Shown in pieces: positions 7,338-38,019 of a stretch of DNA of 63,533 nt. This DNA comes from a virus. Lineage: Duplodnaviria; Caudoviricetes. The stretch lies in the IMG/VR virus record IMGVR_UViG_3300020430_000014, positions 1 to 63,533 of that record; one strand, 5' to 3'. How positions within the stretch are numbered: the stretch's first letter is position 1; each line of letters starts with the position of its first letter. The translations under genes and the position numbers were made by a program. Under the pieces are notes generated by a model. It was not told the origin of the DNA. It ran no database searches and worked only from the letters and a program-made list of their open reading frames with translations.

Positions 7338-7992
7338 CAAACTCTTCCCATGTTTTCCAATTCCAATTGAAGTGCATAACTTTCAAAAGGAAACTCATGA
7401 TTTGAACGTTCAGTTAATGAATGACATCTATTATGAGTTGGAGAATAGTGGAGGAGTTGTTGCAAGCAACGTTGGTGGGTGGCATAGTGAGAGTGATTTG
7501 CACACAAGATTTCCTTCCTTTCAATCTTTAATGAATATTATCAACAATGCTTTAAACCAGTATTGTGATAAGCATGGATATGAAAGTGGACTTGTGTGTA
7601 AAAGGATCTGGGCAAATTTGAATCGTGAGAACGAATACAATATGCCACATCATCACGGTAACAATGCGATGACTGGGGTTTACTATCCAGTAAAGCAAGT
7701 TATTGGAGATCTGTATGAGTTTAATTACAGTGAAAATGTTTCTCTTCAATTAGGAACTTATGATGGTGAACAGGGTGGATGTCTAACAATTCAAGATCCT
7801 TCTTACGGTTTGAAGACAAAGTTGAGGAAGAAAAAACAATATAAAGCTTTTACAGCAGATCACTATCATTACTATCCTGTTGCGGGCACTCTAGTATTAA
7901 TGCCCTCATATTTGGTACATAGCGTTTTGCCTTTTCAGGGCGAAGGTGAACGAGTAAGTATTTCTTTTTCTTGTGATTATGGAGACTATTGA
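7327..7992 (+). CDS. 2OG-Fe(II) oxygenase (TIGR02466-like)
   Basis: SNVGGWHS, PHHH..MTGVYY, MPSYLVHSV, RVSISF. Confidence 0.85.
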   Translation: MGIDKLFPCFPIPIEVHNFQKETHDLNVQLMNDIYYELENSGGVVASNVGGWHSESDLHTRFPSFQSLMNIINNALNQYCDKHGYESGLVCKRIWANLNRENEYNMPHHHGNNAMTGVYYPVKQVIGDLYEFNYSENVSLQLGTYDGEQGGCLTIQDPSYGLKTKLRKKKQYKAFTADHYHYYPVAGTLVLMPSYLVHSVLPFQGEGERVSISFSCDYGDY

Positions 7993-9364
7993 GCACACGA
8001 TTCTAAAGAATCTTTTATATAATGAAGAATACTCCCGTAAGGTAATTCCCTTCATAAAACCTGAATACTTCCAAGAAGTATCTCAGAAGATTATGTTTGA
8101 AGAGATTGTTTCCTTCATCACAAAATACAATACACAGGTTACTGTCGAAGCACTTCTAATTGAGATTTCTGATAGGAAGGATCTCAATGAAGGCATGCTT
8201 AAAGAATTGCAGATCCTGGTTACTAATTTGCAAGATAGTCCTGCAGATCTTCAGTGGTTGTATGATACCACTGAGAAGTGGTGTCGTGATAGAGCAATCT
8301 ATCTTGCTCTAATGGACTCCATCAATATTGCTGATGGCAATGATGAGAAAAAGAATAGGGATGCTATTCCATCTATCCTTAGTGAAGCACTAGCAGTCTC
8401 TTTTGACAATAACATTGGTCACGATTACTTTGCAAATGCCGACGAACGATTCGACTACTATCATCAGAAGCAGGACAAGATCCCCTTCGACTTGGAATAC
8501 TTTAACAAGATTACAAAGGGAGGTCTTGTTAATAAGAGTCTTAATGTCGCTCTTGCTGGTACAGGCGTCGGTAAGTCTTTGTTCATGTGCCATATGGCTA
8601 GCTCCTGTTTGCTTAACGGACATAGCGTCCTATACATTACAATGGAGATGGCAGAAGAGAAAATTGCTGAGCGTATTGATGCAAACTTACTCAATGTTCC
8701 CATACAGGAGATTAGTGAACTTCCTAAGGTGATGTTTGACAGCAAAGTCACAAAATTGTCGCAAAAAACTCAAGGTTCTCTTATAATTAAGGAGTATCCC
8801 ACCGCAAGCGCACATAGTGGACATTTTAAAGCACTTCTTAATGAGCTTGCACTTAAGAAGTCATTTAGACCTGATATTATTTTCATTGATTACCTTAATA
8901 TATGCGCTTCCTCAAGATATCGCGCAAATGGCAATGTCAATTCATATTCGTATATTAAGTCTATTGCAGAGGAGCTTAGAGGATTGGCTGTTGAAGCAAA
9001 CGTCCCTATCGTATCTGCCACGCAGACCACTCGTTCTGGTTACGGTAGCTCTGATGTTGACCTTACTGACACTTCTGAGTCCTTTGGTCTCCCTGCTACT
9101 GCTGATCTTATGTTTGCCCTTATTAGCACAGATGAATTGGAGGAACTCGGGCAGATTATGGTGAAGCAGTTGAAGAATAGATACAATGATTTGTCTGTCA
9201 ATAAGAGATTTATTGTTGGTATTGATCGTGCTAAAATGAGACTGTATGATTGTGAGCAATCAGCACAGAATGATGTTCTTGACAGTGGTCAAGACGAAGA
9301 GTATGAGAATGAAGATAGAAAATCTTCCCGCAAAGAAAAGTTTGGAACCTTCAAGTTTGATTGA
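7979..9364 (+). CDS. gp41: replicative DNA helicase (T4 gp41)
   Basis: AGTGVGKS, IFIDYLNIC, SATQTTRSG, KQLKNRY. Confidence 0.97.
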   Translation: METIEHTILKNLLYNEEYSRKVIPFIKPEYFQEVSQKIMFEEIVSFITKYNTQVTVEALLIEISDRKDLNEGMLKELQILVTNLQDSPADLQWLYDTTEKWCRDRAIYLALMDSINIADGNDEKKNRDAIPSILSEALAVSFDNNIGHDYFANADERFDYYHQKQDKIPFDLEYFNKITKGGLVNKSLNVALAGTGVGKSLFMCHMASSCLLNGHSVLYITMEMAEEKIAERIDANLLNVPIQEISELPKVMFDSKVTKLSQKTQGSLIIKEYPTASAHSGHFKALLNELALKKSFRPDIIFIDYLNICASSRYRANGNVNSYSYIKSIAEELRGLAVEANVPIVSATQTTRSGYGSSDVDLTDTSESFGLPATADLMFALISTDELEELGQIMVKQLKNRYNDLSVNKRFIVGIDRAKMRLYDCEQSAQNDVLDSGQDEEYENEDRKSSRKEKFGTFKFD

Positions 9365-9366
9365 TT

Positions 9367-9897
9367 ATGAAAAGCATTAACCCTGAATTGATTGGTGATT
9401 TTAAATCCATTGAGTATCCTGCAAGGAGGCAGTTCCCTAGTGATGAGATCGTAGAGCGTTGGAAGAGTCGTGGACATCTTTATGTCAATTACACTGGACT
9501 TCTTCGTGAAGAGTATCGTGGAGTTCCTGAATGGACACATGATATTGTAGACTCGCTTAAGAAAAAATATATTACTGTTGATGATAAGTGGTACTTCATG
9601 AAAGAGACTTCTCTATCTCTTTATAATATGCCACCAGGAACTATCATGCCTGAGCATGAAGATACTTATCCTAGGTTTAGAGAGATCTATAATGAACCTG
9701 ATATTAACAAGATTTGTAGGGTTTTGATCTTCCTTGAAGATTGGAAGACAGGACATTATTTTGAGTTAGATCAACAACCATATGTCAAATGGAAGAAAGG
9801 TGATTATCTCTGGTGGACTGGAGATACTACACACTTGGCAGCAAACCTTGGACTTGAGAATAGATATACTATGCAAATTACAGCGACTTTGGCATGA
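9367..9897 (+). CDS. 2OG-Fe(II) oxygenase / cupin-fold hydroxylase
   Basis: MPEHED (HxD), THLAAN, RYTMQIT. Confidence 0.75.
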   Translation: MKSINPELIGDFKSIEYPARRQFPSDEIVERWKSRGHLYVNYTGLLREEYRGVPEWTHDIVDSLKKKYITVDDKWYFMKETSLSLYNMPPGTIMPEHEDTYPRFREIYNEPDINKICRVLIFLEDWKTGHYFELDQQPYVKWKKGDYLWWTGDTTHLAANLGLENRYTMQITATLA

Positions 9898-10607
9898 GGA
9901 AGAGGAGAGCAGTAATAGATGATCTTGTAGAGCAGTATGGTGATTACTGCTCTACTTTTACTTTTAAGTTGAGGTCTGGATTAGAAGGACAAATTCACAA
10001 AGAGGGATTTATTAATTGCTTCTGGAATAAGACTAGTAAATTAGTTTACATGCACATTGATAAGTGTGGAAGTACATCTGTATCCTCTGCACTAAAACTG
10101 CATTGTCCTAGGTTTATATCTCTTGATCTATTAAAGACGGATAAAGATCCAGATTATCTTGCAAAATATTTTGTTGAAAGTGGTCATACATTTTTTGCTG
10201 TAACAAGAGATCCTGCACAAAGATGGATCTCTGGACTCAATGAGTTTATGTGTAGATATAAACCACCTCTTGAATGGGTTGTTGGTCAGGTTGAGAAGGG
10301 CAAGTTTATTTTTGATGAACACACTGGTCCTCAAACAACATTCCTAAGATTGTGTCTTGAGAATCAAGGTAAAATTAAACTGATTAGGATGGAAGGGGAT
10401 CTCTCTGTAAAAGTAAACTTGTTTATGAAAAATAATACAGAAGATTATAAACCATTTCCAGTTCCTCACCTTAGGGATTCTAAGTATTTTACTCCCAATT
10501 ACAAACCGTTGTGTGCTAAGATATATAATGAGTATGTAGAACCAAACAACAAAGAGTTTTTGGATCTTTATGAATCGGATTATGAATTGTACGCAAAAGG
10601 TATCTGA
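9894..10607 (+). CDS. sulfotransferase (Sulfotransfer_2-like)
   Basis: PAPS-binding motifs YMHIDKCGSTS and RDPAQRWISG. Confidence 0.75.
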   Translation: MRKRRAVIDDLVEQYGDYCSTFTFKLRSGLEGQIHKEGFINCFWNKTSKLVYMHIDKCGSTSVSSALKLHCPRFISLDLLKTDKDPDYLAKYFVESGHTFFAVTRDPAQRWISGLNEFMCRYKPPLEWVVGQVEKGKFIFDEHTGPQTTFLRLCLENQGKIKLIRMEGDLSVKVNLFMKNNTEDYKPFPVPHLRDSKYFTPNYKPLCAKIYNEYVEPNNKEFLDLYESDYELYAKGI

Positions 10608-11196
10608 CCCCTTCCATTCTGTCGAGAGGTTTGAAGATACGATAGCGAATTTTTATGGTGCCAAGTATGGTATTGCCACTGACTGCTGTACTCATGCAAT
10701 TGAATTGTGTTTAAGATATGAAGGATACGACAGAATAACATTACCAGAGCATACTTATATTTCTATTCCAATGACCTGCAAGAAACTTGGTCTTGATTGG
10801 AGATTTGATAATATTCAGTGGTATGATCAATACCATCTTGGCGGTACTAATATTATTGACGGTGCAGTTTTGTGGAGACCAAATTCATATGTCTCTGGAA
10901 CTTATTTGTGTTTGAGTTTTCAATATAGGAAGCATCTATCTTTGGGTAGAGGTGGAATGATTCTGACAGATGATGATTATGCTGCGGAACAGTTGCGGAT
11001 GATGACCTATGATGGACGTAAGAAGTATGTTCCTTGGGGTGATCAAAATATTAGTGTTATGGGGTATCACTACTATATGACTCCAGAGACTGCAGAGAGA
11101 GGACTTGAGGCATTTGACGAAGTAAAAGATTCATTCCCTCTTGCAATGAGTTATAAAGATTATCCATATCTTCCTGACATGAGTATTTTTAAATGA
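10582..11196 (+). CDS. DegT/DnrJ/StrS-family PLP aminotransferase, short form
   Basis: FEDTIANFYGAKYGIA, LSFQYRKHLSLGRGGMILTDD (PLP lysine), GYHYYM. Confidence 0.85.
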   Translation: MNCTQKVSDPFHSVERFEDTIANFYGAKYGIATDCCTHAIELCLRYEGYDRITLPEHTYISIPMTCKKLGLDWRFDNIQWYDQYHLGGTNIIDGAVLWRPNSYVSGTYLCLSFQYRKHLSLGRGGMILTDDDYAAEQLRMMTYDGRKKYVPWGDQNISVMGYHYYMTPETAERGLEAFDEVKDSFPLAMSYKDYPYLPDMSIFK

Positions 11197-12056
11197 ATAA
11201 ACTGAAGGGACTTCCTCCCATCATGTACTTGAATTTGGATCATAGGACTGATAGGAAGGAACACATTGAAGGTCAATTTAAAAAGTGGGGCATTACTGAT
11301 TTTACTCGGTGGTCTGCTTCCAGATTTTCCACTAAAAAAATTGATGAGTGGGGTCATAAGTTAGACTTGATGCTCCTTGCTCCATCTGACGCATCAATTG
11401 TAATGAATGAATTTACAATGATGATTGAGTGGTATGAATCTGGTATATCTGAGAACCTGCTCATCATTCAGGATGATTTGTGTTTTGATCTTGTTGAGTA
11501 TTGGCCATTTGACTGGGAGACAATAATGAAGAGTCTTCCATACAATTGGGAGATTGTTCAGTTTTACCACTGCCATGATTATCAAATCAAGATGCATCTT
11601 CATCCTAGACAGTGGCATAGTTCTTCCGCTGCTATCTTTATGGTCAACAGATCTTTTGTTGAGAAGTTGATGAAGATACACCTTCAACCTGATGGATCTT
11701 TTAAGTTGGATCAAAGTCTTAGAGATCTTCAGGTTCCTAGAGAGTCTTATAGTAGTGATGACTTTTTGATTTATCAGGTCGGTAAATCTTATTCTCTTCC
11801 TCTTTTAACTTTGGATCCTAAGTTAGCAGTAGCACAAGACAATAAACAACAGTCAGATTCAGATTACGATCCGATCATTGCTGTTTATCATAATAAAATA
11901 TATGATATTCTTGCCACTTCTTGTATTAAAAAATGGTGGGAAGAAAAGAGTTCTGGATATTCGGCGGAAGATATTTTATCTTGGGGTGATGCAATTCACG
12001 AAACTATGTTGATTCAATTACCTCGATATGATTACGTAGATCAGAACCATGAGTAA
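11193..12056 (+). CDS. glycosyltransferase family 25-like, paralog 1
   Basis: YLNLDHRTDRK, IIQDD, LPYNWEIVQF. Confidence 0.8.
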   Translation: MNKLKGLPPIMYLNLDHRTDRKEHIEGQFKKWGITDFTRWSASRFSTKKIDEWGHKLDLMLLAPSDASIVMNEFTMMIEWYESGISENLLIIQDDLCFDLVEYWPFDWETIMKSLPYNWEIVQFYHCHDYQIKMHLHPRQWHSSSAAIFMVNRSFVEKLMKIHLQPDGSFKLDQSLRDLQVPRESYSSDDFLIYQVGKSYSLPLLTLDPKLAVAQDNKQQSDSDYDPIIAVYHNKIYDILATSCIKKWWEEKSSGYSAEDILSWGDAIHETMLIQLPRYDYVDQNHE

Positions 12057-12909
12057 TAATTCTAATACAGATGCCTCTTTAAAACTGAGGGGAATTCCTA
12101 AGATCATCTACAGGAATCATGACAGTGATGTAGAGAATAAAAAAGAAATTGAGAGTCAGTTCTTATCTAGGAATATTGTCGATTATCAGAGACACTCCAA
12201 TAAATATCATGAAGTCGATTATGCCGATTGGTCTGGCATGATTCTTGATAAGGGTTTGGTTAGAACTCCTGATGAGTATGCAGAGTCTCTCAATATTATT
12301 GACGCTATTGTTCAGTGGTATGATTCCGAATCCTCTGAGGTTTGTATATTTACAGATGATTATATAGACTTATCTTTATGTGATTCGTGGATGTTTGATT
12401 GGCAGTTTTTATATCATCATCTTCCATACAATTGGGATTGTATTCAGTTAGGAGTCTCATCCACTAGATTTATTAAGATGCATCTCCATCCTTGGATTCC
12501 AAGTAATAAGTCCATGCATTGTTTTATGATCAGTAGAACTTTTGCAAAGAGGTTGAAGAAGTTTCATTTTATTGATGGTAAATATAGATTATCGTATCCC
12601 TCACCAAATCGATCCTTACTGTTTACTGATTATGGATTGCTAGATGCATTTTTTTATGATATTGGGATAACTTACACACTTCCTGTATTTGCTCCTAGAG
12701 TGGTGGATAAGCATAGTCTTGCATATCAAATATCATCTGATGCAATAAAATATTGGTGGAAGCATAAATCTGCTAAGTTTTCTAATTTTGAATTCTTCCA
12801 TTATAATAAAGGTGATAAAGAATGGAAGATGGAAGTTTTATTTGATACTCAAGGTAGTAGACCAGAAGTATACATGGATCCTATGGAGGGGGTATTGTTA
12901 TGGATTTAG
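12049..12909 (+). CDS. GT25-like paralog 2 (divergent)
   Basis: IFTDDYID, LPYNWDCIQLG, KYWW; N-terminal NLD motif lost. Confidence 0.72.
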   Translation: MSNNSNTDASLKLRGIPKIIYRNHDSDVENKKEIESQFLSRNIVDYQRHSNKYHEVDYADWSGMILDKGLVRTPDEYAESLNIIDAIVQWYDSESSEVCIFTDDYIDLSLCDSWMFDWQFLYHHLPYNWDCIQLGVSSTRFIKMHLHPWIPSNKSMHCFMISRTFAKRLKKFHFIDGKYRLSYPSPNRSLLFTDYGLLDAFFYDIGITYTLPVFAPRVVDKHSLAYQISSDAIKYWWKHKSAKFSNFEFFHYNKGDKEWKMEVLFDTQGSRPEVYMDPMEGVLLWI

Positions 12910-13805
12910 ATAACAAACTAAAGGGATTTCCAAAAGTTCATTTCTTCAATCTTGATAATAGAACTGATCGAAGGGACTGGATGGTGGGTCAATTTGAACA
13001 CTATGGTATTGAATATGAACGTGTATCAGGAACAAAGTTTCTTGCTTCGGAGAGTAAGAAGTGGAAGCATCTTATAAAAGATATTGCAGATTACAAACTC
13101 CTAGTTCCCATAGCTGCAAATGCAGTAAGTCATCTTGACTTTCTAAAGAATTGGTATGCTACTTCTAAAGATCCATATGTTCTTCTAATGGAAGATGATT
13201 ATGATATTAGATTAATTGACTACTGGCATTTTGATTGGCAAACTCTATTGGATAGATTGCCTTATGACTGGGACTGTCTTCAAATGGGATTTGAGAACCC
13301 AGATGGAATGAGATTTCATTTACATCCTATTGAATCTGCACATGATTTTGGACCAGTTCTTTTAAAGCGTTCTTTTGTTGAGAAGTTGCTCGATCTTCAT
13401 TGTGTTGGAGATAAGTACAAATTAGTAAATACTGTTGCTAATGCTGCGTGGAATAGACAAACAGACGTTGCTGGTTCTGGAACCGTTGATTACTTTATGG
13501 TTCATACTGGTAGAACGTATTGTCTACCTTTAATTACCATCAATGCTAACTTTGGTAGTTTTGAAAACAATAGTATCATTCAAAAATTCTATAGAAGTGA
13601 AGGTGATATTCTTGCTAGGAATACTCAGTATTATTGGTGGCAGCATGAGAGAGATCGATATACTCTGGATGAGTTCTTTACCTATGGAACTTTTAGACAC
13701 GAATCGATGCGTTTAATGCCCAACGGATTCCGCACATATGACATCACTGGAAAGTCATATAAATTATATGGGGAATCATACCTTGAATTTTTTAGAGGAT
13801 CATGA
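12900..13805 (+). CDS. GT25-like paralog 3
   Basis: FNLDNRTDRR, SHLDFLK, LMEDDYD, LPYDWDCLQMG. Confidence 0.82.
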   Translation: MDLDNKLKGFPKVHFFNLDNRTDRRDWMVGQFEHYGIEYERVSGTKFLASESKKWKHLIKDIADYKLLVPIAANAVSHLDFLKNWYATSKDPYVLLMEDDYDIRLIDYWHFDWQTLLDRLPYDWDCLQMGFENPDGMRFHLHPIESAHDFGPVLLKRSFVEKLLDLHCVGDKYKLVNTVANAAWNRQTDVAGSGTVDYFMVHTGRTYCLPLITINANFGSFENNSIIQKFYRSEGDILARNTQYYWWQHERDRYTLDEFFTYGTFRHESMRLMPNGFRTYDITGKSYKLYGESYLEFFRGS

Positions 13806-14608
13806 ATTTACACGATAAGTTTGCTGGGGTTCCTACCTTTTATTATTTTAATTCCGATACAAGTGCTCCATTGCATAAGCACATGGAACGGAATTTGATC
13901 AATTTGAAGGTAAAGAATTATCAGAGGGTATCTACTTCCAAGTATACCAATTCCAATGTCAATGATTGGAAGGATTTGCTTGTTAATAGACCTAAGTATA
14001 AACTTCCAATTGCCACAGCAGGGTATTCAATATCAATTCTTGAATTCTTAAAAGATTGGTTCGATAATACTGAAGAGGATACATTAATCATTAGTAGAGA
14101 TACTATAGATTTTGGAATTGTAGAGCACCTGCATTTTGATTGGAGTTATTTAATGAGTAGACTCCCATATGATTGGGACTGTCTCATGCTGGGATTTGAG
14201 AATTTAAATTATATTCCATTCTATCTTCATCAAATTTTGCCAGCACATACATTTGGCACGGCACTTCTTAATCGGAGGTATGTAAAGAAGTTAATTAAAA
14301 TACATTGTGAGGGAGACAAATATAATCTGTCAAACTTCAGCGCCAATAAAAACTTTGGACTAGCTTCGGGAACACCAGATTATTTTATTGGACATTGTGG
14401 CAAAACTTACTGTGTACCAATATTTCCAAACCACACAGATTTCTTTGCTAAAGAGACTAAAAAATATCAACTTGTCAAAGCTTGTAGATTAGCTTACTAT
14501 GACTGGTGGAGGGGAGATAAAAAGAGATATCAGATAGATGAATTCTTTACTTACGGTAAGGCAAATGATAAGGGAATGTTGAAAAAACTCTCAACGTATG
14601 CACGATGA
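13802..14608 (+). CDS. GT25-like paralog 4 (acidic motif degenerate)
   Basis: LPYDWDCLMLG, GKTYC, YYDWW; ISRDTID in place of MEDDYD. Confidence 0.72.
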   Translation: MNLHDKFAGVPTFYYFNSDTSAPLHKHMERNLINLKVKNYQRVSTSKYTNSNVNDWKDLLVNRPKYKLPIATAGYSISILEFLKDWFDNTEEDTLIISRDTIDFGIVEHLHFDWSYLMSRLPYDWDCLMLGFENLNYIPFYLHQILPAHTFGTALLNRRYVKKLIKIHCEGDKYNLSNFSANKNFGLASGTPDYFIGHCGKTYCVPIFPNHTDFFAKETKKYQLVKACRLAYYDWWRGDKKRYQIDEFFTYGKANDKGMLKKLSTYAR

Positions 14609-15405
14609 ATTTTAATAATAGATTGAAGGGATTCCCTCATGTTCATTATGTAAATCTTGATAATCGAACTGACCGTAGAGATTACATGGAAGAGCAGTTT
14701 GATTATTGGAAGTTACCATCAACAAGAATATCAGGATCAAAATTCTTAGCATCAAATATTACGGACTGGATATCTGATTATATTGTTGGAACTGTAACTG
14801 GAGTGCCTGCATATGCGATTGGTAATGCAGTAACTCATCTTGAGTTTATGAAGAAGTGGATCAATACTAGTGATGATGAGTATCTTCTTTTGATGGAAGA
14901 TGATTATGATCTTAATTTATTTGAGTATTGGAACTTTGATTGGGAATATTTAATGTCTCGACTCCCATATGATTGGGACTGTGTGCAGTTGGGATTTGAA
15001 TCTACAGAATTCATACCATTTTTTCTACATCCAAAATTGAGACATTCGTACTTTGGTCCTGTTCTTTTACAGAGACATTATGTTGAAAAAATATTATCCT
15101 TGCATTGTTACAAAGATAAGTATAGACTGAATTGTCAGACTTCAATTCAGGGATTCAGTGGTAATGCAACTACTGTAGATTATTTTGTGGGTCACACTGG
15201 TAAGACATATTGTATTCCATTGATAACAACAAATACAAAACTACCTAGTGCAGAAAATAGTATTCAGATAAACAGACCACACCATGACAATTCTAGATAT
15301 GCTTACTATTATTGGTGGATGAAGAAGCATCTGAAATTCTCTCTAGATGAATTTTTTACGTTTGGAAAACCAAACGATCATAAAATGGTAATTTTAACAA
15401 CATGA
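14605..15405 (+). CDS. GT25-like paralog 5
   Basis: YVNLDNRTDRR, THLEFMK, LMEDDYD, LPYDWDCVQLG. Confidence 0.82.
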   Translation: MNFNNRLKGFPHVHYVNLDNRTDRRDYMEEQFDYWKLPSTRISGSKFLASNITDWISDYIVGTVTGVPAYAIGNAVTHLEFMKKWINTSDDEYLLLMEDDYDLNLFEYWNFDWEYLMSRLPYDWDCVQLGFESTEFIPFFLHPKLRHSYFGPVLLQRHYVEKILSLHCYKDKYRLNCQTSIQGFSGNATTVDYFVGHTGKTYCIPLITTNTKLPSAENSIQINRPHHDNSRYAYYYWWMKKHLKFSLDEFFTFGKPNDHKMVILTT

Positions 15406-16367
15406 CTTCAACAAATGAATGGGATCAACTTAAAAAAGTAATTGTTGGTGTCGCTGACTTTGCAAGAATACCTGAGATGGATAAAAGTCTTAGGACAATT
15501 AACTATGCTGATAGAGATCAAGTTGATTCAGTAAAAACTGGACCATATCCTCAGAAAGTTATCGATGAAGCTAATGAAGACCTTGAGACCTTCTGTGAAT
15601 TCTTGCGTGGGGAGAGTGTAGAAGTCCTGAGACCAAATAGAGAACCAACTGATTACTATAATTATTGTCCTAGGGATTCAGTATTCATTCATGGAGATCT
15701 TGTTGTAGCAACTCCACAACCATTAAGATCGAGAGTAGGTAATTGGAGGTCATTCAAGCACCATCTCAAAAATGTTGTGGAGATGCCATGCTCATATCAT
15801 GATGGATTATATAATGAACGATGTATTGGTAATCCAGATATACTTGCTCTTACTGAACTGACACCTGCATTTGATGCAGCTAATGCAATTAGGGCAAATG
15901 AAGATGTTCTGTATTTACAGTCTAATAGTGGTAACGCTGCAGGAGCACATCTACTTCAAAGTCTTTTGAATTCTGATGCACATGTATCTATAGTTAAAGA
16001 TATCTATACATATGTTCACATAGATACTACCATTGCATTCTTGAGAGAGGGATTGATGATGGTTAATCCCACTAGAGTTACTGATCCTAGGAAGCAGTTA
16101 CCTCATCCTTTTAATATGTGGGAGATTATTGCAGCACCTGATCCAATTGACATAGGATATTATCCTGGGTATAATAATGCTTCGGAGTGGTGCAACATGA
16201 ATTTATTCAGCGTGTCACCTAATCTGGTTGCTCTTGAAGAACATCAGCATCCAACTAGACGAATATTGGAAACATATGGAATTGAGTGTGCTATGCTGCC
16301 TATGAGGCATCAAAGAACTCTTAGTGGAGGATTCCACTGCGTAACATTAGACTTGGAGAGAGAATGA
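15402..16367 (+). CDS. amidinotransferase (StrB1 / glycine amidinotransferase family)
   Basis: NEWDQLKKVIVG, CPRD, FDAAN, HIDTT, GGFHCVTLD (catalytic Cys). Confidence 0.9.
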   Translation: MTSTNEWDQLKKVIVGVADFARIPEMDKSLRTINYADRDQVDSVKTGPYPQKVIDEANEDLETFCEFLRGESVEVLRPNREPTDYYNYCPRDSVFIHGDLVVATPQPLRSRVGNWRSFKHHLKNVVEMPCSYHDGLYNERCIGNPDILALTELTPAFDAANAIRANEDVLYLQSNSGNAAGAHLLQSLLNSDAHVSIVKDIYTYVHIDTTIAFLREGLMMVNPTRVTDPRKQLPHPFNMWEIIAAPDPIDIGYYPGYNNASEWCNMNLFSVSPNLVALEEHQHPTRRILETYGIECAMLPMRHQRTLSGGFHCVTLDLERE

Positions 16368-17725
16368 ACATAGGATTTATTGGCACAGGGAAACTTGGGG
16401 GACCAGTATCAGAAGCAATGGCCGAATCTGGCAATCAAATATATGCTTATGATCCTGCTGGTGGAGAGAATCTTACTGCAACTAAACTCAAAAGTGGTGG
16501 ATCTAGAAAGTATTACAAATCCATCAAGAGTGTTGTTCAAAAGTCTACTATAGTTTTTGTTGCCGTTCCTACACCTCATAGTGAAGAGTATGATGGTAGT
16601 CTTCCATGCATGGATTTAGAACCAAAGGATTTTGATTACACTATACTCAAAGAAGTTCTTACCGAAGTTAACAAATATGCGTCATTACAGCAGCAGGTAG
16701 TTTTGATCTCTACTGTTCTTCCTGGAACTATTAGAGAACAACTTCTTCCCTTGGTGCCAAATTGTACTCTCATTTACAATCCATATCTTATTGCTATGGG
16801 TACAGTAAAGGATGACTTTAAAAATCCAGAGATGATAATGATTGGAACTGAGAATGGTTTATCTACAGATAACATTTTGTTCAGGTCATTACTTAAATTG
16901 TATTTGGGTTGCACAGAAATTATACCTAGAGGTAAAGCAAGAATAGAGGATTGCGAGAGAAATGTAACGGAAAAAGACCCAGAGTTTTTAAGTAAGTTTG
17001 TTACAGGAACTTATGAAGAGATGGAATGCGTTAAAGTCTTTTATAACACATTCATTAGTAGTAAAATCTCTTTTGTAAATATGATTCAAGACGTTGCAGA
17101 ACGTCAAGGGAACATTGATGTTGATGTTGTAACTAACGCTCTCACTAGTGCATCTACTAGGATTATTAGTCCTGCATATATGAAGGCGGGAATGGGTGAT
17201 GGTGGAGCATGTCACCCTAGAGATAATATTGCCCTAAGGTATCTGTCTCAAAAATTAGATTTGGGATATGATATTTTTGAGTCTGTAATGCGATCTAGAG
17301 AACAACAGGCAAAAAATCTTGCCGAGTTCCTGGTCAAACTTGCAGAGACTTGTAGAAGTCCCATTGTCATTCATGGTAAAGCATACAAACCAAAAGTGCC
17401 TTATGTTGATGGTAGTTACAGTCTCTTGGTTGGACATTACATTGAACAGCTTGGTGAGAGGGTTCGATATGTTGATCCATATACTGGCGACAAGTGGAGT
17501 GGTCCAGCAGTCTTCTTACTTGCTCATAGCGTGAGTACAACTTATAGGTATTGGGATAAACAGAATACTGGAGATGAAGTCTATTGTGACTTCCCATTTG
17601 GTAGTGTTATTGTTGATCCTTGGAGGAAGTTCAAGGCACCAGATGATGAACCATTGGAAGTAATTTATTACGGGAATACTAGAGGTAAAGCAGATCATGA
17701 CTCTCAGCAAAATAACACTATTTGA
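16364..17725 (+). CDS. UDP-glucose/GDP-mannose dehydrogenase family protein
   Basis: GxGxxG (IGTGKLG), VAVPTP, KVFYNTF, GDGGACHPRD. Confidence 0.9.
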   Translation: MNIGFIGTGKLGGPVSEAMAESGNQIYAYDPAGGENLTATKLKSGGSRKYYKSIKSVVQKSTIVFVAVPTPHSEEYDGSLPCMDLEPKDFDYTILKEVLTEVNKYASLQQQVVLISTVLPGTIREQLLPLVPNCTLIYNPYLIAMGTVKDDFKNPEMIMIGTENGLSTDNILFRSLLKLYLGCTEIIPRGKARIEDCERNVTEKDPEFLSKFVTGTYEEMECVKVFYNTFISSKISFVNMIQDVAERQGNIDVDVVTNALTSASTRIISPAYMKAGMGDGGACHPRDNIALRYLSQKLDLGYDIFESVMRSREQQAKNLAEFLVKLAETCRSPIVIHGKAYKPKVPYVDGSYSLLVGHYIEQLGERVRYVDPYTGDKWSGPAVFLLAHSVSTTYRYWDKQNTGDEVYCDFPFGSVIVDPWRKFKAPDDEPLEVIYYGNTRGKADHDSQQNNTI

Positions 17726-18251
17726 GATATCTTCATTTAGATATTCTATTCCAAATTGGGAAGAGAAGAAAGCAAAACTGGTAAAAATGTTGGATAGTGT
17801 GGAGTATGAATGGCATATGTGCTCCACAGATTTTTATACATCTGATGGTAGAGCACCCTATTTTGATGAGTGGTATTCAATCATGAAAAATGATCTGGAT
17901 AATGTTCTTCCGCACCTTGGACTACATTATCATCCAAAAGAATTTTGGCATTTGTGGTCACAAGAGTATAGAGGAAATGAATTCCATGGTCCTCACAATC
18001 ATGGAAATGCTGTCTTGTCTGCAGTTTTATACTTGGATCTTCATCCAATGGAACATGGTGGAACAACATTCTATGCTCCTTTTGTGGAACCACTTATTGG
18101 AACAGTTGCTGACGTAACAGCACAAGTTAATGAAGGAGATATTTTGTTCTTCCCTGGAACCCTTCTTCATGAAGCTAGAGCAACCCTCTCTGAAAAAAAG
18201 AGGAAGATTATATCTTTTAATATTCCAATTAAACTGTTTAACCCATGCTAG
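17697..18251 (+). CDS. 2OG-Fe(II) oxygenase
   Basis: PHNHG..LSAVLYL, FFPGTLLHE, RKIISFN. Confidence 0.82.
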   Translation: MTLSKITLFEISSFRYSIPNWEEKKAKLVKMLDSVEYEWHMCSTDFYTSDGRAPYFDEWYSIMKNDLDNVLPHLGLHYHPKEFWHLWSQEYRGNEFHGPHNHGNAVLSAVLYLDLHPMEHGGTTFYAPFVEPLIGTVADVTAQVNEGDILFFPGTLLHEARATLSEKKRKIISFNIPIKLFNPC

Positions 18252-18784
18252 GAGTCAAAGATTTATTTTCGATTAAGATTATAAAGTATTCTATATTAGA
18301 TTGGGAAAGTAAAAAACCAAAACTTCTTGAGATGATTGATAAATCTCATAGTGCATGGAATGAATGTGATACAGATTACTTTACTAGTAATGGAAGAGCA
18401 CCTTACTTTGATGAGTGGTACTCTCTTTTAGAGGAAGATTTAAATGAAATAAGATCTAAAGTTCCATTACCATTTAAAGGACCAGAAGAGTGGCAACTTT
18501 GGTCACAGACATATAATAAAGGTGATTATCACTCTCTTCATAATCATGGATTGGGTAATATGTCCGCTGTGCTACATGTTGAATTTGATCCAGAGGAACA
18601 TATGTCAACGACTTTTTGTTCTCCATTCCCAGATCCATTTTTTGGTAGAATAGAGACTTTGGGTTTGACTGATGTTCAGGAAGGTGATATTGTACTGTTC
18701 CCTGCGATGCTTGGTCATGAGTGTAGGGTTCAGCAATCCAGCAAACCAAGAAAAATAATGTCATTCAATATTCCTATTGGATAG
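18245..18784 (+). CDS. 2OG-Fe(II) oxygenase, tandem paralog of the previous gene
   Basis: LHNHG, LFPAMLGHE, RKIMSFN; shares GRAPYFDEWYS with 17697. Confidence 0.82.
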   Translation: MLGVKDLFSIKIIKYSILDWESKKPKLLEMIDKSHSAWNECDTDYFTSNGRAPYFDEWYSLLEEDLNEIRSKVPLPFKGPEEWQLWSQTYNKGDYHSLHNHGLGNMSAVLHVEFDPEEHMSTTFCSPFPDPFFGRIETLGLTDVQEGDIVLFPAMLGHECRVQQSSKPRKIMSFNIPIG

Positions 18785-18832: not shown

Positions 18833-19237
18833 ATGACTGTTGATACTGAAAAGTATGTCGAGTTCGTCAAGCAAACCACCAGTGCTCCTAGTCTGGACTA
18901 TCCTGTAATGTCTGCTCGTCTTAGTGAACTTGAGGCGAATGGTGCTAATGTGACTCAAATGATGACCGCTGCTTTTGGTCTGTCTGCTGAAGCAGGTGAG
19001 TTTACTGAAGTTGTCAAGAAAATTGTCTTCCAGGGCAAACCTTACAATGAAGAAAATGTATTTCACATGAAGCGTGAACTTGGAGATATTATGTGGTATG
19101 TGTCTCAGGCATGTATGGCACTAGATATCAGTATCGAAGAGGTCATTCAAATGAACTTTGAAAAACTTAGTGCTCGTTATCCTGAGGGTGCGTTCAGTAT
19201 TGATCGCTCTGAGAATCGTGTGGAGGGAGATCTATGA
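18833..19237 (+). CDS. mazG: MazG nucleotide pyrophosphohydrolase
   Basis: GLSAEAGEFTEVVKK, RELGDIMWY, KLSARYP. Confidence 0.93.
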   Translation: MTVDTEKYVEFVKQTTSAPSLDYPVMSARLSELEANGANVTQMMTAAFGLSAEAGEFTEVVKKIVFQGKPYNEENVFHMKRELGDIMWYVSQACMALDISIEEVIQMNFEKLSARYPEGAFSIDRSENRVEGDL

Positions 19238-35391: not shown

Positions 35392-35465
35392 CGGGATGTA
35401 GCGCAGTTTGGTAGCGCATTCGCTTTGGGAGCGAAGGGCCGCAGGTTCAAATCCTGTCATCCCGA
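35392..35465 (+). tRNA. tRNA-Pro(UGG)
   Basis: Cloverleaf; ttcgc-tttggga-gcgaa; promoter TTGACA(35354)-17-TAGAAT. Confidence 0.95.
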
Positions 35466-35488
35466 TTCCATATAATTTTTTTAACAGC

Positions 35489-36121
35489 ATGTACGTAAGT
35501 AAATCTATAAATCAAACTGAAGAACCTGTTGTTCAAGGAACACATAGAATCGCTCAAAACCCTCTTGTTTACTATAGAGAAGTAATTCCTGAAAAAATTG
35601 TCAATGTGATGGCAGAAGAACTCACTGAAATGGAGGAGTTCGGTTCAACTAGATGGCATGACGCTGAAGTAGGTGGTGAAGCATCGGGTAGATTAGATAC
35701 TTCTGTCAGAAATTCAAAGTTGACCTGGTGGTATGAAGAACACTGGGCATGTAGTATTATCTCTCATTACATTGGTCTTGCTAATCGTAAGTATTGGGAA
35801 TATGACTTAAATGTTCTTGAAAGTATTCAAGTATCTTTGTATGGGAAGAGTGGTCACTATGGTTGGCACAGTGATTATGGAACTTCTGAAGATGGAAAGT
35901 TTACTAGAAAGTTAAGTGCTAGTGTGCTAATTACTGACCCTACAGAATACATGGGCGGTGACTTAGAATTTATTGATTATCATGGGAATGTTGTAAAGGC
36001 ACCCAAAGAAAAAGGATCTGTTATTGTTTTTGATTCTAGAATTCCTCATAGAGTTACTCCAGTAACACATGGAAAAAGAATCTCTCTCGTAACCTGGATG
36101 TACGGACCAAAATTAAGATGA
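35489..36121 (+). CDS. 2OG-Fe(II) oxygenase (prolyl hydroxylase / PKHD-type)
   Basis: YGWHSD, RKLS, YMGGDL, PHRVTPVTHGKRISLVTW. Confidence 0.88.
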   Translation: MYVSKSINQTEEPVVQGTHRIAQNPLVYYREVIPEKIVNVMAEELTEMEEFGSTRWHDAEVGGEASGRLDTSVRNSKLTWWYEEHWACSIISHYIGLANRKYWEYDLNVLESIQVSLYGKSGHYGWHSDYGTSEDGKFTRKLSASVLITDPTEYMGGDLEFIDYHGNVVKAPKEKGSVIVFDSRIPHRVTPVTHGKRISLVTWMYGPKLR

Positions 36122-36768
36122 GTATTACCAATCCTTGGCCAAGATTTACAAAGGAAGGATTTAAAAAAGAAAGGATCCCTGATGATCTTTACTTTGATAT
36201 GATGCTTGAATATAATAAGGCAAGATTTACGGACATACAACAAGATCCTTATTTTGAGCCACATTATGATCAGGTAGTTTCTGGTGGTGCAATAGCAATG
36301 CTGGACACTGATGAACCATTCTACCTAAGAGCAAATATTTCGGATCAAGCATTTGATCGTTGGGCAAAAAAACTTCAACCTCTTATGGAAAAGTGGTGTG
36401 GAGAAAAACTTAATTTTATTCAAGGGTATGGGATAAGATCTTATCACAAAGATTCAATGCTATGTGTACATAGAGATGAGATATCAACACATATTATTAG
36501 TCTCATTGTTCATGTGGATGAACATCCAGAAGTAAAGTGGCCTTTAGAGTTCATCGATCATGATGGAAAACTTCATAAAGTTACTTTTGATAAAGGAGAC
36601 ATGTTAATGTATGAAAGTCTCTGTGTTCATGCAAGAGAGACTCCATTTACTGGTGAGTATTATAGAAATATGTACTTCCATTGGTGCCCAGTAGACTGGG
36701 ATCCAACTCCATATCAAAACAACTGGGTAAGGTATCGTAGTATTCAGGAGGCATTAAATGAAGATTGA
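36118..36768 (+). CDS. 2OG-Fe(II) oxygenase
   Basis: GIRSY..VHRD, WPL, YES..VHAR. Confidence 0.75.
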   Translation: MSITNPWPRFTKEGFKKERIPDDLYFDMMLEYNKARFTDIQQDPYFEPHYDQVVSGGAIAMLDTDEPFYLRANISDQAFDRWAKKLQPLMEKWCGEKLNFIQGYGIRSYHKDSMLCVHRDEISTHIISLIVHVDEHPEVKWPLEFIDHDGKLHKVTFDKGDMLMYESLCVHARETPFTGEYYRNMYFHWCPVDWDPTPYQNNWVRYRSIQEALNED

Positions 36769-36934
36769 AATGTTTACTGTGAAAGAGTGGCAAGATAATT
36801 GGGAAACTCTTTTTGAAAGAGTGGAGAACGGGGAGACTATAGGTGTTGTCGCTGAGGACGGTCAGACAGCTGTCATGACCCCAGCGGATGATGAACTCAT
36901 ACGCATGTATACTGAACACAATGAGGCACCTTAA
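36758..36934 (+). CDS. Phd/YefM antitoxin-like small protein (58 aa, not in track)
   Basis: AGGAGG SD; FTVKEWQDNWETLFERVENGETIGV..DGQTAVMTP. Confidence 0.55.
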   Translation: MKIEMFTVKEWQDNWETLFERVENGETIGVVAEDGQTAVMTPADDELIRMYTEHNEAP

Positions 36935-37009
36935 GGGACTGTCGCATATTGGTTAATGCGCTCTGCTTATAACGGAGTCAATCGGGTTCAATTCCCGACA
37001 GTCCTACCA
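36935..37009 (+). tRNA. tRNA-Ile(UAU)
   Basis: Cloverleaf; ctctg-cttataa-cggag; encoded CCA. Confidence 0.88.
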
Positions 37010-37082
37010 GGGGGATTAGCAATCTGGTGAATGCAGCGAACTCATAATTCGCCTAAGGCGAGTTCGATCCTCGCATCCCCCA
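37010..37082 (+). tRNA. tRNA with CAU anticodon (elongator Met, or Ile2 if lysidinylated)
   Basis: Cloverleaf; gcgaa-ctcataa-ttcgc; paired 1:72, so not an initiator. Confidence 0.88.
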
Positions 37083-37136
37083 CTTGACGTTTTTACGTCA
37101 TCCTTGTAAAATACTATTGTCAACACTCACAGGACA

Positions 37137-37346
37137 ATGACAATCACCGTTAAGTTCAAGAAGGACATTCAGACTCTTAAGTCTGCTGCCAATGGAGATC
37201 TCTTTTTGGACGTAAAAAATCCAAAACTCTTCAAAAAAGTCCGTCGTTACTATGAGAACACTGGTGTTGTATTCTCTGGCGATCCTCTAGATGACTATGA
37301 TATCCTTATGGAATCTCTGTCAGCTGATCTTGAATCCGTTGTATAA
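37137..37346 (+). CDS. conserved cyanophage hypothetical protein
   Basis: LDVKNPKLFKKVRRYYE; promoter TTGACG(37084)-17-TAAAAT. Confidence 0.7.
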   Translation: MTITVKFKKDIQTLKSAANGDLFLDVKNPKLFKKVRRYYENTGVVFSGDPLDDYDILMESLSADLESVV

Positions 37347-37390
37347 GTTTCCTAGTTCTTAAAACTAGGTGGTGGAGTCACATACCCTTT
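37347..37390 (+). ncRNA. cis-element, possibly a partial wcaG-type RNA motif
   Basis: Hairpin cctagtt/aactagg followed by UGGUG in a 5' UTR. Confidence 0.35.
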
Positions 37391-37395
37391 TAAAA

Positions 37396-38019
37396 ATGCC
37401 AGACCAAGAATTCGTAGATCCTAAAGAACAAATCCAATCTAAAGTTGCAATGCATCAAGACTTTATTATGGTCTGGGATGATGTTGTAGAGCAGGGATTT
37501 TGTGATTGGTTGATCGAATACTTGGAACAAACTGAATATCTCTCACCTCGACGCCAAAATTATCTCTCTGATAAACAAGTCGAGATGCACAACTTCTCTC
37601 CTGGTGAGGCAGACTACCTGTCCTCACTCGTTGGGCAGTGTGCTTTGAATTACATTGATAACTACCCATACCTTAGGTCTTTTCCTTACATGAGCAGTTG
37701 TGTAATGTTGCAAAAGACTGGTCCAAAAGAAGGATATCATGCTTTTCATGCAGAAGATTCTACTTGGAATGCTCAAATGAGAGTTCTAACTTGGATGGTC
37801 TATCTTAATGATGTTGATGAAGGTGGTGAAACAGAATACCTGTATCAACAACTTAAAGTTAAACCTAAAAGAGGTAGAGTAGTTATTTGGCCAGGATCAT
37901 TTACTCATATTCATAGAGGTAATCCTCCTATGAGTGATAAGTATATCGCTACTGGTTGGTTTGCTGGATGCGTAGGACATGAGCAAAAAATATTCTCTCC
38001 TCTCGGTTCCCCATCTTGA
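37396..38019 (+). CDS. 2OG-Fe(II) oxygenase (prolyl 4-hydroxylase-like)
   Basis: GYHAFHAE, YLNDVDEGGET, FTHIHRGNPP, KYIATGW. Confidence 0.88.
   Translation: MPDQEFVDPKEQIQSKVAMHQDFIMVWDDVVEQGFCDWLIEYLEQTEYLSPRRQNYLSDKQVEMHNFSPGEADYLSSLVGQCALNYIDNYPYLRSFPYMSSCVMLQKTGPKEGYHAFHAEDSTWNAQMRVLTWMVYLNDVDEGGETEYLYQQLKVKPKRGRVVIWPGSFTHIHRGNPPMSDKYIATGWFAGCVGHEQKIFSPLGSPS

Follow-up and report, generated by a model that had tools for sequence, protein, structure and literature searches.

Guanidino sugars are, to our knowledge, known almost only from aminoglycoside-type antibiotics and have not been characterised in any virus. In the streptidine branch of streptomycin synthesis a dehydrogenase is followed by the DegT-type aminotransferase StsC and this in turn by the amidinotransferase StrB1. 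The subject of this work is an island of twelve genes in the virus record IMGVR_UViG_3300020430_000014, a 63.5-kb fragment of a T4-like cyanomyovirus (33% complete by CheckV estimate) whose full 63,533 nucleotides are referred to below as the window. Like the StrB1/streptidine steps, the island would follow a logic of oxidation, transamination by a member of the DegT family and amidination from arginine, and on balance we think that it probably encodes a soluble, cytoplasmic pathway of sugar tailoring and glycan assembly, run from a replication-gene operon, which gives a guanidino- and sulfate-bearing glycan. It can be taken to be a real, ancient, selected and abundant phage pathway, with a chemistry that has good support as far as enzyme families go. 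The island departs from the streptidine branch, however, in that no cyclitol synthase, kinase or phosphatase was found in the window by Pfam, in that its oxidant would be a 2-oxoglutarate (2OG)-dependent oxygenase, possibly together with a radical SAM enzyme, and not an NAD dehydrogenase, in that its aminotransferase is half-size, and in that the system as a whole is viral and has GT25-like transferases and a sulfotransferase joined to it. With neither a cyclitol-forming enzyme, a kinase or phosphatase nor an export or resistance gene among the 64 open reading frames (ORFs) of the window as scanned with Pfam, the island is not a member of the aminoglycoside clusters. The genes in question are the following (loci of class A are those that share the gene order of the window, see below).

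7973 to 9364, + strand: gp41 helicase (PF03796), bordering the island on the left and found upstream of it in 32 of the 35 class A loci
9361 to 9897, + strand: g1, predicted small (178 aa) 2OG-Fe(II) oxygenase by its HxD...H...R motif and fold, invariant core
9894 to 10607, + strand: g2, predicted sulfotransferase (Sulfotransfer_2, PF03567)
10570 to 11196, + strand: g3, half-size DegT-type pyridoxal phosphate (PLP) aminotransferase (208 aa, PF01041), invariant core
11193 to 12056, + strand: g4, GT25-like glycosyltransferase with motifs kept (phrog_2835)
12049 to 12909, + strand: g5, GT25-like paralogue with degenerate motifs (phrog_2835)
12900 to 13805, + strand: g6, GT25-like glycosyltransferase with motifs kept (phrog_2835)
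13802 to 14608, + strand: g7, GT25-like paralogue with degenerate motifs (phrog_2835)
14605 to 15405, + strand: g8, GT25-like glycosyltransferase with motifs kept (phrog_2835)
15402 to 16367, + strand: g9, StrB1-like L-arginine amidinotransferase (321 aa, PDB 1bwd), invariant core
16364 to 17725, + strand: g10, NDP-sugar 6-dehydrogenase-like protein of the UDP-glucose/GDP-mannose dehydrogenase family (PF00984, PF03721)
17697 to 18251, + strand: g11, predicted 2OG-Fe(II) oxygenase (PF13759, phrog_81), variable accessory gene
18245 to 18784, + strand: g12, predicted 2OG-Fe(II) oxygenase (PF13759), variable accessory gene
18833 to 19237, + strand: mazG (PF03819), bordering the island on the right and found downstream of it in 30 of the 35 class A loci
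37979 to 38794, + strand: distal radical SAM gene (271 aa, PF04055)

The sequence-only reading had supposed that no phage system of this make-up has been characterised. This is right, yet a related cluster has been annotated in the cultured phage S-SCSM2R (PQ898602; PMC12801897). Its ORF301-310 include homologues of g9 (65% identity), of the short DegT-type aminotransferase (60%) and of g1 (hhalign E = 5.9e-44) as well as a radical SAM homologue (38%), and GT25-like genes stand at five places in the record. Different from the island, the S-SCSM2R cluster is not located between gp41 and mazG, is without a sulfotransferase and a UDP-glucose dehydrogenase (UGDH)-like gene, and has its radical SAM gene inside the cluster. 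In the accessible part of the paper on this phage, AHBA_syn, an inosamine amidinotransferase and a radical SAM maturase are presented as antibiotic-synthesis genes that no genome of a cyanophage had been reported to carry, why they are present 'remains unclear' and the transferases are filed as cell-wall genes; the same part of the text does not treat the cluster as one pathway and reports no glycan, DNA-modification or metabolite data (PMC12801897). Beyond this description (PMC12801897), our search of the published literature on amidinotransferases, GT25 enzymes and sulfotransferases of cyanophages and on phage guanidino sugars returned nothing relevant.

A more distant homologue of the amidinotransferase (25% identity, E = 2e-15) is found in the Campylobacter phage CP220 (Firehammervirus, T4-like; locus L089, 70690-80717), where its neighbours are five radical SAM genes, two genes for GT-A-type transferases and one for a PAP2 phosphatase, an arrangement that resembles the class B and C loci described below. 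Comparison of the neighbouring CP220 genes with the profiles of g1 and g8 detected no homology, and no short DegT gene was found in CP220 at E<=1e-8.

Parts of the island also recall pathways of glycan synthesis. WbpA (UGDH family), WbpB and WbpE (DegT) lead to 3-amino uronic sugars, and GDP-mannose 4,6-dehydratase (GMD) followed by Per leads to GDP-perosamine. Like the WbpA-WbpB-WbpE route, the island combines a UGDH-family enzyme with an oxidation and a DegT-type transaminase; the best sequence and fold matches of g3 include WbpE and GDP-perosamine synthase, and the window has a GMD gene of its own. Unlike the island, however, both routes N-acetylate the amine or leave it free, form no guanidino group and employ full-length aminotransferases. 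Among GT25 enzymes, Lic2A and LgtB are galactosyltransferases of bacterial lipooligosaccharide (LOS), and the collagen galactosyltransferase COLGALT1, in which one GT-A domain is inactive and another active, acts together with a 2OG hydroxylase. An LH3/ColGalT1 entry (8zgc) is found among the fold matches of g1, but g4-g8 score below the Pfam GT25 threshold, g5 and g7 are without the Asp-Asp, and no collagen-like protein was found in the related genomes. Virion glycosylation encoded by the virus itself is known from mimivirus, chloroviruses and mycobacteriophages. In cyanomyoviruses, 'LPS' gene clusters are mentioned for P-SSM2 and S-SCSM1 in the accessible text of the S-SCSM2R paper (PMC12801897). 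Both kinds of cluster hold, like the island, nucleotide-sugar enzymes and several glycosyltransferases and no carrier-lipid machinery, and in the literature searched none of them is reported with an amidinotransferase, a short DegT enzyme or a sulfotransferase. The island is in our view a variant of virus-encoded glycan biosynthesis and not a categorically new kind of system.

Relatives of the island show that it did not come together by chance. These were fetched via the amidinotransferase, which is encoded on 182 IMG/VR stretches; the best 80 loci were kept, and as they hold 59 distinct amidinotransferase sequences not all of them are independent. When searched by tblastn with the window proteins, the 67 well-flanked loci (at least 3 kb upstream and at least 1.5 kb downstream) showed the short DegT gene in 64 cases, g1 in 60, at least one GT25-like gene in 55, the UGDH gene in 39 and the sulfotransferase gene in 30. 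The co-occurrence of amidinotransferase, DegT, UGDH and GT25 genes, which the sequence-only reading had put forward as a check of its proposal, is thus seen in these loci.

Three gene contexts can be told apart (class sizes were tallied by hand from the tblastn table; the figures of 35 class A loci and of 12 loci out of 67 that have no GT25-like gene were computed, as were the marker counts). Class A comprises 39 loci, 35 of which are long enough to show the sulfotransferase and five or six GT25-like genes. In these 35 the order is the same as in the window, namely gp41, g1, sulfotransferase, short DegT, five to six GT25-like genes, amidinotransferase, UGDH-like gene and mazG (gp41 in 32/35, UGDH in 32/35 and mazG in 30/35), and this order recurs at protein identities down to 34-60%. 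Class B, with 27 loci and S-SCSM2R, has three to five GT25-like genes, the short DegT and g1-like genes, often a radical SAM gene, the amidinotransferase and a further GT25-like gene; it is without sulfotransferase and UGDH, and some of its clusters begin with a gene for an oxygenase of the prolyl-hydroxylase type and end with one for a carbamoyltransferase (of NodU/CmcH type, for example at 11814-13310 of L056). The 12 class C loci hold the short DegT, amidinotransferase and g1-like genes with no GT25-like gene, next to radical SAM genes, twitch-domain ones included, and mostly a UGDH-like gene on the other strand. Three loci are without a short DegT gene: L010, which is cut by the contig end, L061, where nothing else was found, and L048. 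In L048 its place is taken by genes for a GDP-mannose-4,6-dehydratase-like protein, a cupin of the WbuC family and a protein that weakly matches a 'sporadic carbohydrate cluster' 2OG oxygenase, and O-antigen-type proteins are encoded beside the amidinotransferase. The invariant core, found in all three contexts, consists of the oxygenase g1, the short aminotransferase and the amidinotransferase.

Selection on the island genes points in the same direction. Pairwise dN/dS is 0.04-0.18 for ten island genes compared with 0.09-0.10 for gp41, values which are rough because dS is often above 1. Near-identical DNA was found in metagenomes of 7 studies dated 2014 to 2025. As a separate observation, dS itself is 0.37-2.5 in the island as against 0.30-0.35 in gp41 for the same genome pairs (window 7973-17725 compared with L012 and L011); g3 compared with L011 has a dS of 0.37, about equal to gp41, and the other island genes are mostly higher. 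This suggests older alleles or recombination within the island.

Of the three core proteins, g9 matches StrB1 (PDB 1bwd) with E = 2e-56 over residues 4-320, followed by HsvA (4.7e-35), AGAT (9.5e-30 to 4.3e-28) and SxtG (4.8e-29). Its residues D92, D158, H206 and C313 align with D108, D179, H227 and C332 of StrB1 (the numbering of the StrB1 triad, C332, H227 and D179, is derived from the g9-1bwd alignment) and are conserved to 100, 100, 100 and 98%, respectively, in 60 distinct sequences; with two deletions, g9 is about 27 residues shorter than StrB1. On these grounds g9 can be assigned as a true amidinotransferase of the StrB1/AGAT branch of the guanidino-group-modifying enzyme superfamily. 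Relatives are numerous, with 4,909 in the protein collection at E<=0.001 and 759 in a search of 1.84 billion representatives, where the ten clusters that were looked up are metagenomic; a single-protein search of genome contigs gave 0 loci. Some distant relatives (32-40% identity; P0143, P0146, P0156, P0183 and P0212) are fusion proteins, their partners being a class II aminoacyl-tRNA-synthetase-like domain, an FAD oxidase, a TauD-type 2OG oxygenase, a HalD halogenase and NRPS A-T domains.

Could the amidinotransferase module instead make a small guanidino compound such as guanidinoacetate, homoarginine or an amidino-polyamine, unrelated to the glycosyltransferases, so that the island is a set of independent functions brought together? 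The source annotations of g9 relatives read 'glycine amidinotransferase', the second-best solved relative is HsvA, a polyamine amidinotransferase, and the class C loci hold the core trio without GT25-like genes. Yet a sugar-type aminotransferase stands beside the amidinotransferase in 64/67 loci, which would be superfluous if the amine, for instance glycine or spermidine, already existed, StrB1 is matched far better than AGAT (2e-56 versus about 1e-29), and the gene order is kept across 35 loci with overlapping junctions. We consider such a collection of independent functions decidedly improbable.

The aminotransferase g3 matches PF01041 with 62.8 bits (cut-off 19.8). The sequence-only reading was thus correct in naming the DegT family, but g3 is a conserved half-size form and not a standard DegT enzyme: its 208 residues cover only about positions 40-250 of the 360-position DegT profile, which is the PLP-binding half. 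In 71 of 72 homologues the length is 194-227 aa, and 54 columns are invariant in 27 sequences that reach down to 48% identity, including the pyridine-binding Asp (D97) and, within S116-F-Q-x-x-K121, the Schiff-base Lys (K121). Since the homologues share this size and so many columns are invariant, the short length does not reflect decay. All matches listed by Foldseek for the AF2 model (pLDDT 91.5) are DegT-family or annotated PLP-dependent aminotransferases, with GDP-perosamine synthase at the top (1e-9) and ArnB, AHBA synthase, BtrR and WbpE next (TMq 0.6-0.7, about 40% of each target covered). The two-domain architecture of DegT enzymes (about 360-400 aa with a C-terminal small domain) is not found in g3; its longer relatives are methyltransferase fusions, none of them a full DegT enzyme, and both these and the Atlas clusters that hold g3 are viral or metagenomic only. 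Because it is half-size and matches the PLP-binding half only, we file g3 as a DegT-derived short family and not as a standard member. If active, this 200-residue protein would be smaller than any other known sugar aminotransferase. Members of the short DegT family are also encoded in the Flavobacterium phage immuto, among glycosyltransferases, an NDP-sugar epimerase and a full-length WecE, and in the uncultured phage records LR756502 and LR756511 (595-642 kb), the latter two being without an amidinotransferase match.

The third core protein, g1, had been left unnamed by the sequence-only reading and has no Pfam, PHROG or NCBIfam match. A motif H99-x-D101...H158...R168 is invariant in 20 sequences, and the AF2 model (pLDDT 88.9) is a double-stranded beta-helix, for which Foldseek places the 2OG dioxygenases AsqJ, TlxIJ and AndA at the top (E about 7e-6) and FtmOx1 and P4H lower, among small cupins. 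In the VIA comparison PiuC gives a Z of 13.6, prolyl hydroxylases give 12.7-13.1 and the sugar-acting EvdO2, AviO1 and HygX give 10-11. The Atlas clusters of g1 are viral, and about 20% of their members carry PF05118 (Asp/Asn beta-hydroxylase family). With the iron triad, the 2OG-binding Arg and the fold all present, g1 can be classed as a further 2OG-Fe(II) oxygenase beside those predicted for g11 and g12; comparison of its profile with g11 found no relation. g11 (PF13759, 44.1 bits; phrog_81) was detected in only 2/80 loci and is thus not a fixed member of the island, and g12 (PF13759, 42.6 bits) occurs in a minority of loci, in those of class A at about the same place before mazG.

Outside the island, the distal radical SAM protein is 35-38% identical to the radical SAM proteins that are encoded within class B clusters beside the short DegT or amidinotransferase gene. 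In 50,697 phage records its only match at E<=1e-20 is ORF306 of S-SCSM2R, inside the cluster of that phage, and 3 of the 5 related records carry it, both complete genomes among them. It probably belongs to the island pathway, an assignment that we make with low to moderate confidence. BtrN is the twitch-type radical SAM dehydrogenase of 2-deoxystreptamine synthesis; a check of the window protein for such an identity gave as its best PDB match an unnamed 4Fe-4S protein (E = 8e-4) and weak NCBIfam matches to viperin/MoaA. Around this gene (35408-39372), two PF13640 (prolyl-hydroxylase-type) oxygenase genes flank ORFs without assigned function and the radical SAM gene itself, and the 193-aa ORF that follows it (38791-39372) has no match in the phage collection at E<=1e-8.

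The dehydrogenase g10 matches PF00984 (64.5 bits) and PF03721 (54.2 bits); for the C-terminal domain, PF03720, the score of 19.1 stays below the cut-off of 30, and TIGR03026 scores 126.6 bits, below its cut-off of 189.8, with no equivalog near its cut-off. In the PDB it matches UDP-glucose dehydrogenase (4.7e-15) and GDP-mannose dehydrogenase (2.6e-14). All of 29 distinct sequences share the stretch G-D-G-G-A-C-H-P-R-D, which includes the catalytic Cys (100% conservation), the Rossmann motif is kept, and the Cys of G-G-A-C-H-P-R-D aligns with that of G-G-S-C-F-P-K-D in 4a7p. g10 can therefore be placed in the UDP-glucose/GDP-mannose 6-dehydrogenase family by sequence, while the scores name no substrate. 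The sulfotransferase g2 passes PF03567 (E = 1.1e-5, 26.1 bits, cut-off 22) and has no match among PDB sequences; H-x-D-K-C-G-S-T-S and R-D-P-x-x-R-W-x-S, which we take to be the motifs that bind 3'-phosphoadenosine 5'-phosphosulfate (PAPS), are near-invariant in 26 distinct orthologues. This gene is restricted to class A loci (35/80).

Between the core genes g3 and g9 lies the array g4-g8. All five proteins match phrog_2835 (E = 1.6e-33, 5.3e-22, 3.1e-44, 2.4e-25 and 1.7e-43 for g4 to g8, respectively); with PF01755 (cut-off 24) g6 scores 17.3 bits and g4, g5, g7 and g8 give no match. A sixth copy in the window (47695-48513), however, passes as a GT25 enzyme with 47.1 bits and aligns with g6 at 32% identity (E = 8e-27), so that g4-g8 are by sequence homologous to a bona fide GT25 copy; the best PDB sequence match of this sixth copy is weak, to R655 of mimivirus (E = 0.001). 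Taking the commonest variants among the orthologues (53 for g4, 29 for g5, 54 for g6, 31 for g7 and 55 for g8), g4 keeps (Q/E)DD and NLDHRTDR, and g6 and g8 keep EDD and NLDNRTDR. In g5 the second Asp and the N-terminal R-x-D-R are lost, and in g7 (R/K)-D-T replaces E-D-D and the N-terminal motif is lost. We assume that E/Q-D-D is the acidic metal- or nucleotide-binding motif, and the role of N-L-D-x-R-x-D-R is likewise taken from general knowledge of the family. By these motifs g4, g6 and g8 are likely to be catalytic and g5 and g7 non-catalytic, g5 being a probable non-catalytic or altered partner, and intact and degenerate copies alternate along the array. The degenerate copies are under purifying selection (dN/dS 0.13-0.18 for g5 and 0.04-0.10 for g7, as compared to about 0.04 for g4). 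In a FastTree tree of 54 sequences from 13 of the 80 loci and the window, each position of the array forms its own clade, with support of 0.947-1.0 (g4 1.0, g5 0.995, g7 1.0, g8 0.947). The alternating array lends itself naturally as a test case for pseudo-enzyme partners.

Thus, of the families named by the sequence-only reading, the amidinotransferase, the NDP-sugar dehydrogenase, the sulfotransferase and the two oxygenases are each borne out by PDB or Pfam matches. Its five GT25 enzymes hold in so far as they are homologous to a GT25 protein that passes Pfam; they fall below the Pfam cut-off, though, and only three of them keep both motifs. The pathway that it proposed, leading to a sugar that is guanidinylated and possibly sulfated or uronic, agrees with these data, the catalytic residues of the enzymes being conserved across relatives.

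How might these enzymes act together? From their families, the UGDH-like g10 would first oxidise an NDP-hexose to a uronic acid. g1 would then provide a keto or hydroxyl position on the sugar, a keto position being what the next step calls for; the distal radical SAM enzyme may help in this, and in some relatives a 4,6-dehydratase may do it instead. g3, for which family and active site are clear, would transaminate the keto position to an amine, its substrate being read from the context, and g9 would move the amidino group of L-arginine onto this amine, giving a guanidino sugar and ornithine; here family and triad are in place and the acceptor is our reading. A short oligosaccharide of defined structure would be put together by the three intact GT25-like enzymes, each encoded beside one of the two degenerate paralogues or between them, these being probable non-catalytic partners, and g2 would sulfate the oligosaccharide once the chain is built. 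The product would be a charged guanidino/sulfate glycan on a macromolecular acceptor in the infected cell. We propose this order because the three core enzymes would all be required only by a chemistry that leads from C-H/C-OH via C=O and C-NH2 to C-NH-C(=NH)NH2. None of the cluster proteins has a stretch of 19 residues with a Kyte-Doolittle hydrophobicity above 1.24, and the enzymes are accordingly predicted to be soluble and cytoplasmic; Pfam scans of the 64 window ORFs turned up no lipid-carrier, flippase, polymerase or initiating-transferase gene.

The sequence-only reading had drawn on guanidino-cyclitols of the streptidine type. We regard an NDP-sugar as the more likely substrate, since no cyclitol synthase or kinase was seen in the window Pfam scans and a UGDH-like gene adjoins g9 in class A, and since L048 carries sugar-nucleotide and O-antigen-type genes and the short DegT gene of immuto lies in a sugar cluster. 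Candidate products, by analogy with known pathways, would be a guanidino-uronic sugar or, via the window GMD, a 4-guanidino-4,6-dideoxyhexose.

It could still be argued that the island makes a free, aminoglycoside-like guanidino pseudo-oligosaccharide that acts on translation, on competing phages or on other microbes, with no macromolecular acceptor at all. The closest solved relative of g9 is after all the streptomycin enzyme StrB1, and relatives of the short DegT protein include BtrR, which acts on a cyclitol, and an enzyme annotated as glutamine--scyllo-inositol transaminase. Radical SAM enzymes, some with twitch domains, are found in class B and C loci and one is encoded distally in the window, distant amidinotransferase relatives are fused to the secondary-metabolite domains TauD, HalD and NRPS A-T, all island proteins are soluble and the window Pfam scans show no lipid-carrier, flippase or polymerase gene. 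Then again, the same scans show no cyclitol synthase, inositol dehydrogenase, kinase, exporter or self-resistance gene, and variant loci encode O-antigen-type proteins. Glycosyltransferases of aminoglycoside pathways are usually of the GT-B type and GT25 enzymes belong to LOS and protein glycosylation; those of the island are GT-A, GT25-like enzymes as in the latter and not GT-B. The label of antibiotic synthesis given to three genes by the S-SCSM2R authors, as far as the accessible text goes, also speaks for a free compound (PMC12801897). Weighing these points we think a free metabolite unlikely. Its most specific form, in which the phage would make, while it infects the cell, a streptomycin-like guanidino pseudo-oligosaccharide that shuts down translation of the host or of competitors or excludes superinfecting phages, appears distinctly unlikely to us; for its synthesis the phage would use a PLP aminotransferase of minimal size (200 residues) and pairs of catalytic and pseudo GT25 subunits, for which no counterpart has been characterised.

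If, as we prefer, the glycan is placed on a macromolecule, what is the acceptor? Reasoning from context, a protein of the phage or of the host is a tentative first choice, and the host lipid A-core or another envelope glycoconjugate is possible, if doubtful, on the same kind of reasoning. A phage-encoded, probably virion, protein is slightly favoured over the host lipid A-core or envelope because the order of the array is kept across phages at 34-60% identity, whereas host surface glycans would be expected to vary. In addition, prolyl-hydroxylase-type oxygenases head class B clusters, and mimivirus R655 is weakly matched by the sixth GT25 copy.

Several observations weigh against the pathway and the acceptor that we propose. 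The C-terminal domain that g3 lacks is present in every characterised DegT enzyme, and the transaminase activity of g3 is for this reason an assumption. g9 has no match to PF02274 at E<=0.01, which does not outweigh its PDB matches because this model is weak for the StrB1/AGAT branch: it was annotated at 0.0045 on the CP220 homologue and matches others as C-terminal fragments only. That the acceptor of g9 is an amino sugar is read from the gene context, as its sequence cannot name it. The neighbours of g1 are a mixture of protein hydroxylases and sugar-acting oxygenases with tied scores, and no relation was detectable between the g1 profile and the carbohydrate-cluster oxygenase of L048. That no GT25-like gene was seen in 12 of the 67 well-flanked loci indicates that GT25-based glycan assembly is not obligatory. 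Characterised bacterial GT25 enzymes act on LPS cores, which favours the host envelope as the acceptor. Finally, no collagen or tail-collar domains (PF01391, PF07484) were found in the 5 related records, and the window contains no (G-x-x)5 run except for one 15-residue Gly-rich stretch at 54083-54127; the most obvious hydroxylated-protein acceptors are thereby removed. This matters because Iyer et al. (2010), in the accessible part of their paper, predicted that bacterial neighbourhoods of beta-hydroxylase and sulfotransferase genes modify collagen-like and tail-collar proteins (PMC2938197).

The genomic setting of the island bears on yet another possibility, which the sequence-only reading had kept open, that phage DNA is the target, with a base being activated and then glycosylated with the guanidino sugar for protection from host nucleases. 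The clamp-loader, regA, DNA polymerase, uvsX and gp41 genes make up the left part of the window, nearly all genes of which are on the plus strand. The uvsX-gp41 DNA matches 497 phage records, mostly of Synechococcus and Prochlorococcus phages and best S-SCSM1 (76% identity over 90% of the query), in which a single small ORF separates gp41 from mazG and the island is absent, whereas 9.4 kb lie between gp41 and mazG in the window, and the island DNA itself has no megablast match in the 50,697 phage records. The island stands within the replication module, after uvsX/gp41 and before mazG, and encodes several 2OG oxygenases; glycosyltransferases by which phages protect their DNA are well known. 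However, no ThyA-type hydroxymethylase (PF00303), C5 methylase (PF00145) or TGT/DpdA (PF01702), the known entry enzymes, was found in the 5 related, cluster-bearing records, 2 of them complete, in searches whose positive controls matched in 10, 9 and 14 of 14 genomes, respectively. By Pfam the oxygenases are PF13759 or AspH-like and not TET/JBP, although a direct TET/JBP search had a silent control, and five to six transferases together with a sulfotransferase exceed any DNA glycosylation system that we know of. The S-SCSM2R authors raise DNA glucosylation as a possibility in the accessible text (PMC12801897). In the light of these findings we see no support for hypermodification of DNA and hold it to be most improbable.

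By its layout the island is tied to the replication genes. Its twelve plus-strand ORFs fill 9361-18784 directly after gp41 and, as the sequence-only reading had noted, run on without gaps: gp41 and g1 overlap by 4 nt and the eleven internal overlaps measure, in order, 4, 38, 4, 8, 10, 4, 4, 4, 4, 29 and 7 nt, so that all twelve junctions overlap by 4-38 nt. The start that it had placed at 9367 is the first ATG, but the ORF begins two codons upstream with a TTG at 9361. A gap of 48 nt separates g12 from mazG (18833). Sigma-70-like promoter sites (58 versus 56.7 +/- 7.6 in shuffles) and terminator-like sites (10 versus 6.7 +/- 2.6) are not in excess, and given this together with the overlapping junctions we regard the island as one translationally coupled unit that is continuous with the replication genes. 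A perfect 12-of-12 sigma-70 consensus (TTGACA, 17 nt, TATAAT) lies at 16147-16175, within g9 and 190 nt upstream of g10; it may be a by-product of coding since the same bases encode the conserved D-I-G-Y-Y-P-G-Y-N, owing to which they are largely kept in relatives, shifted by 3 nt. A hairpin with an 11-bp stem and a T-rich run is found at 9927-9955, just inside the 5' end of g2. In four metatranscriptome contig sets the island DNA matched seven pieces, all of them short and poorly matching, and the PADLOC defence-system models gave no match to the 12 island proteins.

If its product is confirmed, the pathway would bring a new sugar chemistry to virus-encoded glycosylation, in the form of a conserved and abundant module of ocean cyanophages. 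It would also explain part of the '2OG oxygenase and LPS gene' load of cyanomyoviruses, for which an explanation has long been lacking, and represent a new way in which phages dress their particles or the host surface, which would bear on adsorption, superinfection and grazing. S-SCSM2R, which grows on Synechococcus WH7803, is a phage in culture that has the core.

Two further regions of the window deserve mention. By Pfam, a second sugar cluster at 40064-48513 contains several nucleotide-sugar enzymes and glycosyltransferases, namely the GMD (40064-41071), a GDP-fucose-synthase-like epimerase/reductase, GT11 (fucosyltransferase family), GT6, a DUF7796 protein, a HAD-nucleotidyltransferase fusion, GT4 and the GT25 copy that passes Pfam; the pair of GT11 and GT6 suggests a fucosylated, blood-group-like glycan. 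Finally, an ORF of 1,878 aa at 55389-61025, which has no Pfam match and is rich in Gly (13.1%), Thr (10.8%) and Ala (9.7%), probably encodes a large structural or fibre protein.

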